A stretch of 43,969 bases of DNA from sequence record NC_073319.1; one strand, given 5' to 3'. The notes under the pieces were generated by a model. It was not told where the DNA came from. It saw only the letters and a list, made by a program, of their open reading frames with translations, and ran no database searches. Source of the stretch: Escherichia phage SZH-1. The position numbers and the translations under genes are program-made. How positions within the stretch are numbered: the stretch's first letter is position 1; the number at the start of each line of letters is the position of its first letter. Shown here one piece after another: positions 2,932 to 40,640 of the stretch.

Positions 2932-3432
2932 TCATTTAACAGCCCTCCCGATAGCCTCAGCCTCTTGCCACGGTTTACCGTCGAACAGGGCCAGACGCCC
3001 TGCCGTACGGCGACGCAGGCCTAGTAGCGGTTTGCCGTTCTGGTTGATGAACAGCGCCAGCTTGGCACGCAGGGCCACAACATCGCCCGAGCGGAGTGCC
3101 TTACCCGTGCCGGTGGTAGCTGCAATCACACCGGCGCCCGCGTTATACACCAGGTCGCAAACAGCGTCGAACTGCGCCTGTGTCAGTGAATGGTGCGCCA
3201 CCGAATCCACCGCAGCTACGGCCTTAGCCATATCGCGATTAAGTAACAGGAGGCCTTGTCCCGGTGTGATAGTCTGCCCGGCCTTAACATGTGGGCCATA
3301 GCTTCCGTACCCAATAGTAAGGTACTTCTCATTTGGCGTAGCACGATATGCAGTTCCACGGAACCCCTCGAACGCAGCGGTAAAATGCAATCCATTATCT
3401 GAAATGTTTCGAGACACGCTTATGCCCTCCAT
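2932..3432 (-). CDS. Endolysin, phage lysozyme (GH24, T4/lambda-R-like)
   Basis: N-terminal motif FEGFRGTAYRA...YLTIGYGSYG typical of GH24 lysozymes; follows two membrane-protein genes. Confidence 0.85.
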   Translation of the reverse strand: MEGISVSRNISDNGLHFTAAFEGFRGTAYRATPNEKYLTIGYGSYGPHVKAGQTITPGQGLLLLNRDMAKAVAAVDSVAHHSLTQAQFDAVCDLVYNAGAGVIAATTGTGKALRSGDVVALRAKLALFINQNGKPLLGLRRRTAGRLALFDGKPWQEAEAIGRAVK

Positions 3433-3667
3433 ACGACAGCCACGCCTGACGAATCTGGCGCAGCGCGACTAATGTGATTAATGTCTCAGGCAGCGTAGGC
3501 GACATGCTGCCCTGTAACAGGTGAATACATCCGGCGGCACAGACGATAGCAGTCAGGATATAGAGAACACGCCCGAACAGCCCGTCGTCCACGCGTTCAT
3601 TATACACGTTGAACAGGGACGAAGCGCCCATTGCCAGCATTACGACAAACCAGAATAGCTCAGTCAT
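3395..3667 (-). CDS. Holin or antiholin-like membrane protein (2 TM, basic C-terminus)
   Basis: Internal ATG at 3667 overlapping the stop of 3660..3968; TM segments LFWFVVMLAMGASSLF and VLYILTAIVCAAGCIHLL. Confidence 0.5.
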   Translation of the reverse strand: MTELFWFVVMLAMGASSLFNVYNERVDDGLFGRVLYILTAIVCAAGCIHLLQGSMSPTLPETLITLVALRQIRQAWLSYGGHKRVSKHFR

Positions 3668-3968
3668 GCGGTCCTCCTGGGCGGGCAATATCGCCGCCCG
3701 ATACGATGCCAGAAAGGCGGGAATAGATAGGCATCCAGAGAATGGCAATGATGAATCCGAGGCCAGCTATCTCGCGCTCACCGGTAATACCAAACCATTG
3801 AGCAGCAAGAGGCGCACCGAAAATGGCGCACGCGAAGCCGGTGAGAAGAAAGACCAGTCCGTCAATCGGCCCGGATATAGACTTTTTATGTTGTCTTAGT
3901 CCGACCAATCCACCGACCAGTGCGGCAGCGAGAAGCCACCCTGTCACTGTTTCAGTAAATTTATCCAA
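3660..3968 (-). CDS. Holin-like membrane protein (about 3 TM)
   Basis: TTG start with GGAGGA 6 nt upstream; three hydrophobic helices; immediately upstream of the endolysin. Confidence 0.55.
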   Translation of the reverse strand: MDKFTETVTGWLLAAALVGGLVGLRQHKKSISGPIDGLVFLLTGFACAIFGAPLAAQWFGITGEREIAGLGFIIAILWMPIYSRLSGIVSGGDIARPGGPHD

Positions 3969-4027: not shown

Positions 4028-4465
4028 TTATCCTAATAGTTGTTTGGTAATAATCTCGCCGCCTGTGTTGGTGTCGAATTGCGCGGCTACTGTTACCGAA
4101 CGTGCCGCTGTATGGCCTAAATACATAGCCGCTAACGCATATGGCGAGCCAGAACCAACGGCGGCAAAGCCGTCCGCAATCGGAATAACCGAACTAAGCG
4201 CGCAATCCCATGATTTATAAAACGAGACTTTGTACACCTTTTTTGTGTCTTTCATGAATACCAAGGCTTCGAAATCGAAGTCGTATGATTTGGGGTTAAG
4301 TACGCCATTATCACGGATTAGCATAGCCCCAACCCCTGCATCTCCAGCCACCCCGATAACGGCAAAGTCATTCTCGTATATCTTCGTGTATGTGTTGTAG
4401 ATGTGGTCCCCTGCTACTCGGGTATCGCAGGCCATTGTCTTTCCGTCAAATGCGATAGTAGTCAT
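4028..4465 (-). CDS. HslV (ClpQ)-like Ntn-hydrolase peptidase
   Basis: N-terminus M-TTIAFDG (catalytic Thr after Met removal, cf. HslV TTIVSVRR) and GSGSPYALAA (cf. HslV GSGGPYAQAA). Confidence 0.65.
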   Translation of the reverse strand: MTTIAFDGKTMACDTRVAGDHIYNTYTKIYENDFAVIGVAGDAGVGAMLIRDNGVLNPKSYDFDFEALVFMKDTKKVYKVSFYKSWDCALSSVIPIADGFAAVGSGSPYALAAMYLGHTAARSVTVAAQFDTNTGGEIITKQLLG

Positions 4466-35545: not shown

Positions 35546-35570
35546 ATAGGAATCCTCTTAGTAAATGAAA

Positions 35571-35590
35571 AGAGGGACCGAAGTCCCTCT
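35571..35590 (-). promoter_or_regulatory. Hairpin/attenuator after the capsid gene
   Basis: Minus-strand AGAGGGAC-uucg-GUCCCUCU followed by UUUCAUUU. Confidence 0.45.
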
Positions 35591-35606
35591 CGATTATAGC
35601 TTAACC

Positions 35607-36656
35607 TTAAGACCCGACACCAGTTACCAGGAAGGCGATCGGTACGTGCTTACGTTCAACAACACGGTTCCAGTTGGAGGCGTTCGCCAGGTCCTGCCAG
35701 GAGGCAGAACGTGCGACAGTCTCGGTGCCGTTGCCGGTGATTACTGCGCTGGTGAAGCTGTAGCCCAGTGGGTGCAGCAACCAGGTCTTACGGGTCCACA
35801 GGGTTTCTACGCCACCGCCGTTGCCGCGGGACTCTTCGCGCTCATATGCCAGCGGATTGGTCGGGTTACCTTCACCGTAACCGATAGCGCCGTTGCCGAA
35901 GATGATAGAGATGAACTTACGGCTGCCACCAGTACCGACTACGGTCATGCTGTCATCAACAATCACGCGGTAGCCCTGGTAGGTGGCGAACAGGGTGTCG
36001 TTGTCAGCATCTTTGATGAAGTCAATAAGCTGCTGCTTACGGGCCTGCGCGTATACGAAGCTGTGCATCGCGATAGCGCCCAGCACTTCACCACCGTTGC
36101 CCATCAGCGCATCGCCCATAGTCTGGGTAGCGTCGATGAACGCGCCTGCGTCGAAGCCCAGAGTAGAGGACACGTCGATTACCATGTCGTTCTGCTCGTG
36201 ATATGCGTCGGTAGCGGCTACGTTGTCGTTGTATAGACCAAGCGCAGTAGCAATCAGACGGCGTTGGGCCTGGCGCTGCCAGAAATTATCCAGACGGGAT
36301 GCTACAGATTGCAGCGGGTTCTGGCTGGTCAGTTCGACAGTCAGGTCAGCCTGGCCGAAACCTTCGTTCAGGTAGGCAACGCGTGCCATCATCTCACCGG
36401 TCTGCACGTTACGCGGGGTAGCGATGTCCTGGTATACGTCGTTCGAGTAGTTCGGCTCGATGGAAGTGTCAATCGCTTTCCAGAAAGGAATATTAGCGAC
36501 GTTGGACGGGCCGCGGGCAATCTCGGCAGCGTATGGGGTCGGGGTCAGAATACCAGACTGGAAGAATGCGGTTTTTTCTACCGGGTCCTCGGTCATATAA
36601 GACGCCAGGACCGGGATGTTGCCAGTTACGATATCGCCGATAGTGGTAATTGCCAT
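35607..36656 (-). CDS. Major capsid protein
   Basis: 349-aa ORF directly after the scaffold gene and before the hairpin and decoration gene. Confidence 0.8.
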   Translation of the reverse strand: MAITTIGDIVTGNIPVLASYMTEDPVEKTAFFQSGILTPTPYAAEIARGPSNVANIPFWKAIDTSIEPNYSNDVYQDIATPRNVQTGEMMARVAYLNEGFGQADLTVELTSQNPLQSVASRLDNFWQRQAQRRLIATALGLYNDNVAATDAYHEQNDMVIDVSSTLGFDAGAFIDATQTMGDALMGNGGEVLGAIAMHSFVYAQARKQQLIDFIKDADNDTLFATYQGYRVIVDDSMTVVGTGGSRKFISIIFGNGAIGYGEGNPTNPLAYEREESRGNGGGVETLWTRKTWLLHPLGYSFTSAVITGNGTETVARSASWQDLANASNWNRVVERKHVPIAFLVTGVGS

Positions 36657-36658
36657 TA

Positions 36659-37360
36659 TTATTTCCTCAGGGCTTTAAGTTGCCGTTCAAATTCGGCAGG
36701 GTTCGATTTATACAGAGCTAAACGCTCCGCTTCACTCATGTCTTTAAACGCTGGTGCGGCCCCGCCGCCTTTGCTACCGGAAGCCCCGCCGCCGGAAGCT
36801 GCATTTGCTTTAATCAAATGCGAAAACGCTTTGTGTTCACGCAGGTATTTGCGGAACTGTTCCGGGTCAGTCGTGATTACGTTGCCATCTGCACCGACAA
36901 ACTTAGTAACCACGTCATCGCCTTCAAACTCAGTCTTAACGAACGGCGCAAGAATGTCTACAGCTTCCGGGGTAATAAAGTCACCCGCGAAAGAGCCTAA
37001 CACCGCTTTACGTTCGCTGCCGAGGATGCGCTCCGCCATTCTGGAGATGCGACCATCTTTCTCAGCTAACACCGGGTCATACTGGCTACGAATCGTCTTT
37101 TCGAACTCGTCCATCTTACCCGCGGCTTTTAACGCCTCCTGGTGTGCGCGCTGCCGTTCTTCTTCGGCCTCTTTTGCTTTACGGGCTGCTTCTTTCTTCT
37201 CCGCCAGCAACGCTTCCTGGTTGGCCTTAAGCCCGGCGACTTCTTTCTCAATCAGCGCCTGAACTTCTTCGGCTGTGAACATTTTCGGCGCGTCACCGCC
37301 ACCGGCTTTATCTTCTGCCCCAGCTTCTTCCTGGAACGGATAACGTAAAAAACGATTCAT
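36659..37360 (-). CDS. Scaffolding protein
   Basis: ATG at 37360 (listed ORF begins at TTG 37414); helical, charged, A/E/K-rich. Confidence 0.65.
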   Translation of the reverse strand: MNRFLRYPFQEEAGAEDKAGGGDAPKMFTAEEVQALIEKEVAGLKANQEALLAEKKEAARKAKEAEEERQRAHQEALKAAGKMDEFEKTIRSQYDPVLAEKDGRISRMAERILGSERKAVLGSFAGDFITPEAVDILAPFVKTEFEGDDVVTKFVGADGNVITTDPEQFRKYLREHKAFSHLIKANAASGGGASGSKGGGAAPAFKDMSEAERLALYKSNPAEFERQLKALRK

Positions 37361-37413
37361 GGTCAGTATGTCCCCTGGACGTTGGAACCCGGGCCACCCG
37401 GATTTACATGTCA

Positions 37414-37456
37414 AGAATAAATTATTCCAACATGCAAGGCAACTATTCCAGAATAT
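37414..37456 (-). promoter_or_regulatory. Candidate leftward promoter upstream of scaffold with CTATTC..GAATAT dyad
   Basis: Minus strand reads (A)TATTC-tg-GAATAG then TTGCCT-N17-TATTCT; weak -10. Confidence 0.25.
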
Positions 37457-37706
37457 TCCTCACGTAATCCTGCAACATGAACACTTTCAGTCTCAGTTGC
37501 CGTACACATTCGGCATTCTGAACGTCGATAGCCAAATCTTCGTCAGCGTCGCTACTTGGGGGCGCCAGTTTGCACGGCGGCTGCATCATCGTCGTATCCG
37601 GGGATGGAATTGGCGTTTGCGACGGCGCGGGACTTGAGCAGGACGCGAGCATCGTCAAAAGTGCACACGCTACGGCCAGGTGTTTCAATGTACTTAACGA
37701 CTTCAC
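37443..37706 (-). CDS. o-spanin (Rz1-like outer-membrane lipoprotein)
   Basis: GTG start with AGAGGTGA RBS; lipobox LTMLASC; Pro-rich mature part; overlaps the i-spanin 3' end out of frame. Confidence 0.6.
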   Translation of the reverse strand: MKSLSTLKHLAVACALLTMLASCSSPAPSQTPIPSPDTTMMQPPCKLAPPSSDADEDLAIDVQNAECVRQLRLKVFMLQDYVRNILE

Positions 37707-37938
37707 GGGTAATCACCTCTGATTTCGTCTTGCCTTCGTTGTCAGCGGCTGCGGCCTTTGATTCGTCCTGCTGCTGCCGTTGTGTTTTCTTCGCTAACTC
37801 AGCCTGTGCTTCCTGCTGTTGCTGCGAAACGAGATTCGCCCGGCCTTCGTTCCAGCCGCTGCGGTACTGGTAGATGCCGTGTGCGTAAGCCAGGATGATG
37901 AAACATGCTCCCGCTACGACAGTTGCTTTAAGATTCAT
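37552..37938 (-). CDS. i-spanin (Rz-like)
   Basis: N-terminal TM VVAGACFIILAYA, Q-rich coiled-coil, periplasmic C-terminus; AAAGGAG RBS. Confidence 0.7.
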   Translation of the reverse strand: MNLKATVVAGACFIILAYAHGIYQYRSGWNEGRANLVSQQQQEAQAELAKKTQRQQQDESKAAAADNEGKTKSEVITREVVKYIETPGRSVCTFDDARVLLKSRAVANANSIPGYDDDAAAVQTGAPK

Positions 37939-37952
37939 GTTTCTCCTTTCTC

Positions 37953-37982
37953 GATAAGTAAAGCCCCGCCTTAAAGCGGGGC
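37953..37982 (-). promoter_or_regulatory. GC-rich hairpin immediately 5' of the i-spanin RBS
   Basis: Minus-strand GCCCCGC-uuuaag-GCGGGGC followed by UUUACUU. Confidence 0.4.
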
Positions 37983-38161
37983 GCTAGGCCTTATCATTTA
38001 AACATAGAAACGGCGTAATCTCAGTAAACCAGTTACTTTTTACACAAGCAATAGAGTATGGCCCTTCCGAACGCGTCAGCGTAACTACACTCGGACTTAA
38101 CGTCCGGCTCCGTTACCTGCCACGCCGCGGTCGCTTGTTCATACTTCACAAGCTCAGGTGG

Positions 38162-38204
38162 AGCTTAGCACATTTTTGGTGAAAAGTCAACTATTCGAAT
38201 AGTT
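38162..38204 (-). promoter_or_regulatory. Candidate leftward promoter with perfect 16-bp palindrome AACTATTCGAATAGTT at the -35
   Basis: TTGACT (rc of 38185..38190), N17, TAAGCT; palindrome at 38189..38204. Confidence 0.3.
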
Positions 38205-38256
38205 TATTCCAACATTTACAATTGAGTGGAATAACAGGAATACATAAACAAATAGT

Positions 38257-38285
38257 TTGCGCACCCCAATATAATAGGGTACTAT
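38257..38285 (+). promoter_or_regulatory. Promoter TTGCGC-N17-TACTAT with dyad AATAG-ggta-CTATT for the lipoprotein unit
   Basis: Same 27-nt core as the promoter at 29405. Confidence 0.5.
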
Positions 38286-38312
38286 TCATTCTATCGAACC
38301 GGGGAGGCCGTC

Positions 38313-38414
38313 ATGTTAGTCGTTATTTCAGTAGTAATTGCAGTTGATGCGGTGATGTTTCTTTGGGCTTGTAGTGGTATTGGTGAAATTGACACGGGTA
38401 ATGGTGAACTATGA
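38313..38414 (+). CDS. Hand-called tiny hydrophobic peptide (33 aa)
   Basis: MLVVISVVIAVDAVMFLWACSG...; GGGGAGG RBS; stop overlaps the lipoprotein ATG. Confidence 0.3.
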   Translation: MLVVISVVIAVDAVMFLWACSGIGEIDTGNGEL

Positions 38415-38755
38415 AATATATTAAATTAGCAGTAGCGGGTGTTGTAGCCGTTTGTTTGAGTGGTTGCGTAAGGTCGTTGCCAGACCCGGCTTTACAGGTT
38501 TATCAGGCAGGGGATACAACGGCAACATGTAATCAGTTACTATCGAGAATCGCCACGACAAAACAAGCTCAAGCCAACGCTACGCACCGTGTTAATAAGC
38601 AAATAGGTACTAACGTTGTACTCGGTGTTACAGGCGCATTCCTGATTGTTCCGCTGTTCTTTATGGACACGGGCGCCGGGCCTTCTATGGACGAGATGAC
38701 AGCCGGTAATCGTCTGTCGCAGTTACAACAAACATACGACGAGAAATGCAAATGA
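38411..38755 (+). CDS. Lipoprotein with internal hydrophobic segment
   Basis: Signal peptide with lipobox LSGC; hydrophobic VVLGVTGAFLIVPLFF; antisense island inside the head module. Confidence 0.6.
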   Translation: MKYIKLAVAGVVAVCLSGCVRSLPDPALQVYQAGDTTATCNQLLSRIATTKQAQANATHRVNKQIGTNVVLGVTGAFLIVPLFFMDTGAGPSMDEMTAGNRLSQLQQTYDEKCK

Positions 38756-38828
38756 CAAATAGTGTGATGTTTTATTTTGTTTTGTGGGTATCGGCTGCGG
38801 CTATCACCGCGATGTTCATATAAAAATA

Positions 38829-38850
38829 AAGCCCCATAGCGGGGCTTTTT
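38829..38850. terminator. Bidirectional terminator after the lipoprotein unit
   Basis: AAGCCCC-atagc-GGGGCTT followed by TTTTTAT; minus strand also T-rich. Confidence 0.6.
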
Positions 38851-38851
38851 A

Positions 38852-39313
38852 TCATTCCGGCTTAGTAACCTTCGCCGCTTTGCTTACCGCCTCTACACCA
38901 TCGGCATCGGTGACTTTAACGAAGTATTCACCCACCGCGTTAACCGTCAGAGACAGAGCCTCTTCCGGGGCGTTTACCACTTCCTTCCCGTCTTTGTACC
39001 AGGTCAACGCATATGGTGCTTTGCCAGCCTTAACGTCTACAGTGATGGTTGCGCTGCCGTCTGCCAGTTCGGTGTCCTGCGGTTGCACTGAGAAATACAC
39101 GTCGCCCGCGTCAGCCAGATACGGAATTTCATAAAGCATACCCGCCGCTGGCAGCGCGATACCTGTTTTATCCGCAAACGGCATATCGTCTACAGGTGTA
39201 CCGAGTACACTTTCGTCCTCAATAAATACCACGTTCTCGCCGGAGCCAGACACTCGGGCGTACTGAACTACGCGACGCGACGGTACATCAGTTACTTTGA
39301 AAAAGCCCATCAT
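38852..39313 (-). CDS. Ig-like domain protein, probable virion surface protein
   Basis: YALTWYKDGKEV...GEYFVKVTDADG Ig-like signature; coupled to the head morphogenesis gene. Confidence 0.5.
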   Translation of the reverse strand: MMGFFKVTDVPSRRVVQYARVSGSGENVVFIEDESVLGTPVDDMPFADKTGIALPAAGMLYEIPYLADAGDVYFSVQPQDTELADGSATITVDVKAGKAPYALTWYKDGKEVVNAPEEALSLTVNAVGEYFVKVTDADGVEAVSKAAKVTKPE

Positions 39314-40443: not shown

Positions 40444-40611
40444 ATGAACTACCATAAACTGATTACCGCTTTCATCAATAACGGTTTGACCGAGAAAGAC
40501 GCTTTTGATGCCGCATACGCGTATAGAAACTGTGACTTGACGCTTGAAGGTGACTCTCAAGAAGATTATGACGAAGCGATAAGAGAAGAAATTAGTTGCT
40601 GGGAGAGTTAA
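40444..40611 (+). CDS. Hand-called small acidic ORF (55 aa) antisense within the head module
   Basis: MNYHKLITAFINNGLTEKDAFD...; AGGAGG RBS 8 nt upstream; followed by a terminator. Confidence 0.45.
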   Translation: MNYHKLITAFINNGLTEKDAFDAAYAYRNCDLTLEGDSQEDYDEAIREEISCWES

Positions 40612-40615
40612 AACT

Positions 40616-40640
40616 AAGGCCTCGAAAGAGGCCTTTTTCT
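40616..40640 (+). terminator. Intrinsic terminator after the small plus-strand gene
   Basis: AAGGCCTC-gaaa-GAGGCCTT followed by TTTTCTTT. Confidence 0.6.

Follow-up and report, generated by a model that had tools for sequence, protein, structure and literature searches.

Two overlapping open reading frames (ORFs) on the minus strand of the Escherichia phage SZH-1 genome (NC_073319.1) very probably encode, judging from their sequences, a two-component spanin of the published "Jersey" overlapped family. They are located among the head genes, about 9 kb from the holin and endolysin genes on the circular map. Pair, family, overlap and head-gene placement are all already present in GenBank and the literature and are therefore ordinary; discovery value is otherwise small, the sole open thread being a conserved leader stem-loop and a promoter-like site in front of the spanin genes. 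All coordinates refer to the window, i.e. the whole stretch of 43,969 nt that was analyzed (Table 1).

An earlier note on this DNA, made from the sequence alone, had described an overlapped i-spanin/o-spanin pair between an Ig-like head gene and the scaffold gene, and the ORFs, their matches to PHROG spanin families and both neighbors are indeed as it described. Since the matched PHROG families are Rz-like spanin families, the two ORFs are not chance ORFs. Prediction of transmembrane segments and lipoboxes, which the same note had suggested as a check, yielded one of each, as follows. The i-spanin carries an N-terminal transmembrane segment at approximately residues 5–23 (Kyte–Doolittle, 19-residue window mean 1.72) and no further hydrophobic segment by this measure, and would presumably have a type II inner-membrane topology. 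The segment is followed by a Q/A/E/K-rich region, and single-sequence AlphaFold2 predicted helices at residues 3–84 and 94–107 with low confidence (mean pLDDT 63; 76–88 over residues 1–60 only). Cys92 is invariant in an alignment of eight sequences, and overall identity is 60–77% to Jerseyvirus and >90% to Kagunavirus i-spanins. A Pfam search with the i-spanin gave nothing significant: DUF2514 reached E = 0.012 (16 bits versus a cut-off of 26), and one other match was spurious.

The o-spanin has the N-terminus MKSLSTLKHLAVACALLTMLAS-C23-S24, then a further Ser, that is, a basic start, a hydrophobic core and the lipobox L-A-S-C. The lipobox cysteine is Cys23, and with Ser at position +2 there is no Asp retention signal. 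The mature part of 65 residues includes nine prolines (a proline-rich linker) and two further cysteines, Cys45 and Cys67. In a strict genome-wide scan for a lipobox combined with a ribosome-binding site, this was the sole ORF to pass. No Pfam family matched the o-spanin at E ≤ 0.1, neither spanin significantly matched Pfam, including its lambda Rz and Rz1 families, and a sequence search of solved structures retrieved no relative of either protein.

The two genes are adjacent, with the i-spanin first, in an overlapped architecture, and the overlap of 155 bp recurs in the phages Golestan, fBC-Eco01, phiSD1, Shelanagig, S102 and Ent2. Periplasmic cysteines available for homotypic intermolecular disulfides are Cys92 of the i-spanin and Cys45 and Cys67 of the o-spanin. 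These properties match those of the 27-member "Jersey" overlapped spanin family described by Kongari et al. in 2018, which includes the Kagunavirus phages K1G, K1H and K1ind1–3 as well as Jersey, SETP3, SE2, HK578 and SO-1, and for which a 155-bp overlap in phage Jersey and constant o-spanin cysteines at positions 45 and 67 were reported (PMC6139136). SZH-1 shares with this family the PHROG families, the product lengths of 128 and 87 aa, the overlap length, both o-spanin cysteines, the single periplasmic i-spanin cysteine and the place between head-morphogenesis/decoration and scaffold genes. Nothing substantial sets the two apart, the lipobox being LASC with Cys23 in SZH-1 and LSGC with Cys22 in Jerseyvirus.

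Previous annotations agree with this assignment. In RefSeq, Golestan gp07 and gp08, which are flanked by the decoration and scaffold genes, are each an "Rz-like spanin"; the fBC-Eco01 record has a "putative spanin" and an "o-spanin" at the equivalent place, and the Shelanagig record an "i-spanin" (387 nt) and an "o-spanin" (264 nt) with the same overlap. The Golestan paper lists ORF7/8 as spanins and ORF66–68 as holins and endolysin (PMC7203180), the spanin/lysis-gene arrangement is described in PMC9825357, and the same split of spanins from lysis genes is listed for Jerseyvirus SeF1 (PMC9409062). Literature searches for experiments on Jersey-family spanins, or for papers that explicitly discuss where they are placed, returned genome descriptions only.

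Spanin complexes disrupt the outer membrane of the bacterium during lysis. For the SZH-1 spanins, direct observation covers gene structure, targeting signals, family membership and conserved synteny, and spanin function is assigned from sequence features, homology and gene context; the mechanism we infer is taken from the established biology of lambda Rz/Rz1. By this analogy, the i-spanin would be anchored in the inner membrane through its N-terminal helix, with a helical domain reaching into the periplasm, and the o-spanin would be exported, lipidated on Cys23 and sorted to the inner leaflet of the outer membrane. Bound to each other by their C-terminal parts, both proteins would form disulfide-linked complexes that cross the periplasm through the peptidoglycan mesh. 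These complexes would remain inert until the holins trigger and the lysozyme removes the peptidoglycan; once freed, they would fuse inner and outer membranes as the last step of lysis.

The comparison with lambda shows both the likeness and its extent. In both phages one stretch of DNA encodes, in different frames, a type II inner-membrane protein and a small proline-rich outer-membrane lipoprotein (PMC6139136), and membrane fusion is the presumed mechanism. Lambda Rz1 is fully embedded in Rz, whereas the SZH-1 o-spanin extends past the i-spanin stop, and the lambda spanins end the S-R-Rz lysis cassette, whereas those of SZH-1 lie among head genes.

Table 1. Features of the spanin region and of the holin-endolysin cassette in the window
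Feature	Position	Strand	Remarks
Endolysin (lysozyme)	2932..3432	-	phrog_7/33703; Pfam PF00959 E=2e-25
Second holin	3395..3748, probable ATG start 3667	-	PHROG match (holins: phrog_2359, phrog_2508)
Holin	3660..3968	-	PHROG match (holins: phrog_2359, phrog_2508)
Major capsid gene	35607..36656	-	downstream of scaffold
Head scaffolding gene	36659..37360	-	phrog_206 E=3.4e-55; 82 nt downstream of o-spanin stop
o-spanin, 87 aa, GTG start	37443..37706	-	phrog_5672 E=4.5e-30; phrog_1267 E=2.2e-18 (residues 9-86)
Dual-coding overlap, 155 bp	37552..37706	-	i-spanin C-terminus / o-spanin signal peptide and linker, in different frames
i-spanin, 128 aa, ATG start	37552..37938	-	phrog_2536 "Rz-like spanin" E=3.8e-55
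o-spanin ribosome-binding site AGAGGTGAT	37712..37720	-	7 nt before GTG; embedded in i-spanin coding sequence
i-spanin ribosome-binding site AAGGAG	37943..37948	-	4 nt before ATG; read from sequence
Two-tier stem-loop	37953..37995	-	leader of spanin genes; predicted fold
Small ORF (38 aa), coding status uncertain	38033..38149	-	between candidate promoter and hairpin
Candidate sigma-70 extended -10 promoter, TTGACT-N14-TGC-TAAGCT (17-nt spacer)	38162..38190	-	read from sequence; ~250 nt upstream of i-spanin ATG
Bidirectional terminator-like hairpin	38828..38848	both	minus-strand tail ATTTTTAT; annotated terminator, both strands, in fBC-Eco01
Hoc-like Ig-domain head decoration gene	38852..39313	-	phrog_3945 E=2.1e-86; upstream of variable slot

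Distance to the lysis cassette and transcription of the spanin block

The spanin region matches 480 phage records and is ∼95% identical to Kagunavirus (Guernseyvirinae) phages, among them VB_EcoS-Golestan and fBC-Eco01. When the end of the window is joined to its start, 1800 bases across the junction are contiguous in Shigella phage phiSD1 at 99.3% identity, which shows that the window holds the whole of a Kagunavirus genome in circularly permuted form. Read along the minus strand of the circle, the genes run from the holins and endolysin through small genes, terminase, portal, head morphogenesis, Ig decoration and a variable slot to spanins, scaffold and capsid, with the lysis cassette directly upstream of the terminase/packaging genes, as in lambda. 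The variable slot between the decoration gene and the spanins comprises ∼900 bp, and the scaffold ATG at 37360 agrees with the 702-nt gene annotated in Golestan.

The earlier note had located holin-like and lysozyme genes at 2932..3968, and two holins and a lysozyme are encoded there (PHROG matches; PF00959). Its description of the spanins as far from these genes is accurate as to physical separation, linkage to the holin and endolysin genes being absent in SZH-1, but not as to "far": the 34 kb hold for the linear window only, and once the map is closed into a circle, 8,962 bp (∼9 kb) of the same strand separate the endolysin stop from the i-spanin start.

From this split the note had concluded that transcriptional timing is separate, for which we found no support. 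Such a separately timed unit, with a promoter of its own and outer-membrane disruption regulated apart from holin and endolysin, appears unlikely, and the regional signals bear on it in both directions. In its favor, the strong bidirectional terminator-like hairpin upstream of the spanin block, which closes both the head-morphogenesis/decoration block and a plus-strand insert, and the conserved extended −10 site together mean that the spanin-scaffold-capsid block may start its own transcript. The next minus-strand terminator-like site, at 35570..35591, follows only after the capsid gene. As any such transcript would carry the scaffold and major capsid genes too, it would represent a head operon rather than a unit specific to the spanins. 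In lambda, moreover, spanins accumulate harmlessly during morphogenesis and are inactive while the peptidoglycan is intact. Co-expression with head proteins would be enough, and no separate control would be needed, because intact peptidoglycan keeps the spanins inactive. Finally, in the one Kagunavirus transcriptome retrieved, RNA-seq of K1B4 placed the lysozyme, a Mu-F-like head gene and the capsid gene all in the "middle" class, at coarse resolution and with spanin genes not named (PMC12645636).

The promoter that the note had proposed before the spanins is partly borne out. There is a single well-conserved promoter-like site; 36 of 67 related loci have exactly its hexamers, with a TACGCT variant in one more and a variable third base of the TGn element; its positional counterpart in Jerseyvirus is TAGACT...TGT-TACGCT. 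A generic promoter scan did no better than chance, calling promoter-like sites in the region no more commonly than in shuffled sequence, which also speaks against a separate spanin unit. The candidate itself fell below the threshold of the scan. The motif is unique in the window, and a search for a second copy before the holin genes, as a test of co-regulation, did not find one. Between candidate promoter and leader hairpin lies a small ORF without a PHROG match that is "hypothetical" in fBC-Eco01 and has a small ORF at the equivalent place in Shelanagig. Our preferred reading is that the spanins would be the first substantial genes of a unit comprising promoter, leader, spanins, scaffold and capsid; at the front of the scaffold/major-capsid transcription block, they would hence be co-transcribed and made along with the head proteins.

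A conserved stem-loop ahead of the spanin genes

The GC hairpin mentioned in the note is present at 37963..37982 on the minus strand, 24 nt upstream of the i-spanin ATG. In the terminator scan, this upper stem, GCCCCGC(T)/(G)GCGGGGC, has eight pairs, seven of them G-C. The lower stem of the predicted fold is GATAAG/CTTATC, in which the T-rich tail (CTTATC) pairs with the upstream GATAAG. The hairpin with its tail TTTACTTATC passes the terminator scan, although this tail is able to pair upstream. At the equivalent place, Jerseyvirus has GCCCGGC/GCCGGGC over TATACG/CGTATA, so that the lower stem differs in sequence and stays complementary; the hairpin tail there is TTAGCGTATA. In a Cornellvirus-like clade a different, long stem without a T run is present, and no hairpin was found at the equivalent place in a Klebsiella/Serratia clade. 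Because the T-rich tail pairs upstream and one related clade lacks a T tail, the SZH-1 hairpin is not clearly a terminator.

The predicted leader structure is conserved. In a comparison of 13 distinct sequences from Kagunavirus and Jerseyvirus, 96% of the upper-stem cells pair, and sliding the partner by one column lowers this value to 54–61%. Two upper-stem pairs show double changes (C-G to G-C, C-G to U-A and G-C to A-U). Pair counting was confined to the upper stem because MAFFT places the Jerseyvirus lower stem one column off. An Rfam search of 37300..38900 gave no relevant family.

The stem-loop could act as a leaky terminator, a processing site or a stabilizer. In three genera it lies 20–25 nt ahead of the i-spanin start, with differing sequences and compensatory changes; together with the promoter-like site it might form a functional RNA element, a reading that we regard as doubtful. 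Such an element could serve processing, by RNase III or in another way, or act as a leader that determines the amount of spanin relative to the very abundant scaffold and capsid proteins encoded on the same transcript. If so, it would account for the persistence of the spanins at the front of the operon since before the split between Guernseyvirinae and Dhillonvirus.

Conservation of the head-gene placement and the role in lysis

A tblastn search with the i-spanin retrieved 616 phage records. The pair lies between head-morphogenesis/decoration genes and the scaffold gene in the Jerseyvirus phages Shelanagig, S102, Ent2 and LDT325, and its placement is identical in the unclassified Guernseyvirinae Tsm2, VLCpiS11a, GRNsp27 and PhiSTP2 and in the Dhillonvirus phages SO-1 and Pubbukkers. 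Metagenomic viral loci gave a similar picture: 64 of 80 have a head-morphogenesis gene upstream and a scaffold gene downstream of the spanins, five are short contigs compatible with the head-module order, and four are Dhillonvirus-like, with terminase, portal and head-morphogenesis genes directly upstream. The remaining seven (i-spanin identity 33–57%) have no head genes nearby. Judged by gene order in these relatives, placement in the head module is an old, fixed trait of Guernseyvirinae and Dhillonvirus and is not peculiar to SZH-1.

Spanin genes outside the lysis cassette are also known from other phages. In T7 the spanin genes 18.5/18.7 are flanked by the two terminase genes, a long way from the amidase of gene 3.5; they differ from the SZH-1 pair in their unrelated sequences, their embedded architecture and the nearby holin gene (17.5). 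T4 pseT.3/pseT.2 resemble the SZH-1 genes in being unlinked to the endolysin gene, and differ in their unrelated sequences and separated architecture. Neither the holin nor the endolysin of T4 is close to its spanins (PMC6139136), and unlinked spanins are thus an accepted phenomenon.

Distant homologues, in turn, occupy classical lysis cassettes of other phages and prophages. At the loci L084, L086 and L087 a homologous pair directly follows holin and endolysin genes, at L090 a homologous i-spanin directly follows the endolysin, and the arrangement in Klebsiella phage Kp4887-1 looks like that of these cassette-type loci, in which the endolysins of L084, L086, L087 and L090 are of three different types. 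The spanin ORFs of L084 and L087 again match phrog_2536 and phrog_5672. The lambdoid-type cassette pairs (L084–L088, L090 and Kp4887-1) share with SZH-1 the families phrog_2536/5672, the overlap and the motifs ITREVVKYV and DVxNAEC; they differ from it in directly following holin and endolysin and in i-spanins that are 35–57% identical to that of SZH-1. With the SZH-1 spanins unlinked to holin and endolysin, guilt by association comes only from these distant homologues, and their place in holin-endolysin-spanin cassettes supports a lysis role for Jersey-type spanins.

This evidence also bears on whether the two membrane proteins could be non-lytic, serving as an envelope-anchored assembly factor, in superinfection exclusion or in another role in the head module or infection. 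Such a role could be argued from their fixed position between head genes as far back as the subfamily can be traced, and from the fact that the function of Jersey-family spanins has been assigned from sequence, homology and context. It is nevertheless very improbable, given that homologues from the same PHROG families fill the spanin slot of canonical holin-endolysin cassettes, that all sequence features of two-component spanins are present, and that the genome would otherwise have no spanin. We found no spanin-like ORF after the endolysin gene, where the downstream ORFs have neither a transmembrane helix nor a lipobox, and no second or unimolecular spanin beside the endolysin or elsewhere in the genome. 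A plus-strand lipoprotein-like ORF at 38411..38755 was considered as a unimolecular spanin and rejected: it is on the opposite strand, occurs in nine phage records only and has 29 residues past its hydrophobic segment.

Two practical points arise. When phages used for therapy are assessed, and many isolates of Kagunavirus and Jerseyvirus are among these, the location of these genes outside the lysis cassette should not be taken to mean that spanins, or a complete lysis system, are lacking. Moreover, that one spanin family is found in classical lysis cassettes and, elsewhere, as a fixed part of a head operon makes a tidy example of movable lysis genes.

The o-spanin start codon

The earlier note had called an o-spanin of 87 aa, and this 5′ limit is right, as indicated by the Shine–Dalgarno (SD) sequence, the lipobox and conservation in 86 loci. 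Length (264 nt) and architecture are the same as those of the annotated o-spanin of phage Shelanagig. Among 94 related loci, 86 (77 distinct sequences) contain an intact o-spanin ORF with signal peptide and lipobox, the eight without a call being failures of the search pattern. All 86 have exactly two further cysteines, none has Asp at +2, and an SD-like motif precedes the equivalent start in 82. The sequence of the signal peptide drifts across these loci while its properties are preserved.

By contrast, a shorter o-spanin of 47–48 codons, which starts at an internal ATG and lacks the signal peptide, is annotated in Golestan, fBC-Eco01, phiSD1, S102 and Ent2, and the profile of phrog_5672 spans no more than 47 positions. 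That this short form (ATG at ∼37586) is the true o-spanin, so that the pair would not make a classical membrane-spanning complex, is scarcely credible despite these annotations and the profile length: the longer frame is open, with AGAGGTGAT at the right distance and a textbook signal peptide and lipobox; it is conserved over the 77 distinct sequences despite signal-peptide drift; phrog_1267 aligns with residues 9–86; the Shelanagig record, which marks ribosome-binding sites, has the 264-nt form; and wrong start codons have been reported for 64 database o-spanins, because gene callers avoid overlaps (PMC6139136). On this sequence evidence, the 87-aa o-spanin is correct and the common 47–48-aa annotation is wrong. 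Most database records, and the phrog_5672 profile built from them, therefore contain an o-spanin cut down to 47 aa, from which the lipoprotein signal is missing.

Start of the o-spanin gene and spanin overlap in relatives

In most Kagunavirus and Jerseyvirus GenBank/RefSeq records, the o-spanin gene is cut at its 5′ end, leaving the part that corresponds to 37443..37586 on the minus strand of the window, and PHROG family 5672 (47 positions) likewise represents the truncated protein. This shortened version begins at an internal ATG and is devoid of the signal peptide and the lipobox; the conserved start, GTG or ATG, lies 120 nt upstream of the internal ATG. The lipobox itself reads L-N-G-C in nine related loci, for example in L012 (Pseudomonas phage LDT325, 1733..1996), and an Asn at position −2 is unusual among lipoprotein signal peptidase sites.

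Members of a Cornellvirus-like clade (loci L013 and L014 and their relatives GRNsp27 and PhiSTP2) encode spanins of the same family that overlap by only 8 bp, corresponding to the 'separated' architecture of Kongari 2018 (PMC6139136). Despite this short overlap, the position of the spanins in the head module is unchanged.

Leader of the spanin genes

The position of the two-tier stem-loop preceding the i-spanin gene is kept in Kagunavirus, Jerseyvirus and the Cornellvirus-like clade, with differing sequences and compensatory changes. A search of Rfam gave no match for this structure. The promoter-like element further upstream was kept across all Kagunavirus-type loci examined, and a positional counterpart is present in Jerseyvirus. 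The −10 hexamers end in CT (TAAGCT, TACGCT, TAACCT).

Features around the spanin pair and widened gaps in relatives
Feature	Coordinates	Strand	Remarks
Two-tier stem-loop	37953..37995	-	directly before i-spanin start
Promoter-like element, extended -10 type	38162..38190	-	TTGACT-N14-TGn-TAAGCT
Small ORF of insert	within 38313..38755	+	33 aa
Lipoprotein-like ORF of insert	within 38313..38755	+	114 aa; phrog_13472
Widened o-spanin–scaffold gap, examples	L064 5481..6646; L080 5523..6421		related loci

Variable slots on both sides of the spanins

A plus-strand insert (38313..38755), flanked by 38828..38848, separates the spanins from the decoration gene, and its longer ORF has a lipobox (LSGC, Cys19) and a hydrophobic segment at residues 68-85. 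Only nine phage records carry the insert, with an identity of at least 99%, and homologues with ∼30% identity occur in Aeromonas phages. The insert looks like a moron, perhaps one serving superinfection exclusion. This slot is filled differently in relatives: S102 encodes an adenine methyltransferase there, and GRNsp27 has another ORF.

On the other side, the gap between the o-spanin and scaffold genes widens from 82 nt to 0.3-1.2 kb in several relatives (loci L064-L080), and in SO-1 a reverse-strand RusA-like gene lies within it. A second variable slot is therefore located directly 3′ of the spanins.

Elsewhere in the head module, the portal and head-morphogenesis genes are separated by a second small opposite-strand ORF (40444..40611, plus strand), accompanied by a bidirectional terminator-like hairpin (40616..40635). 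Directly upstream of both holin genes, we also observed an HslV-family peptidase-like ORF (4028..4465, minus strand; phrog_1040, E=5e-35).
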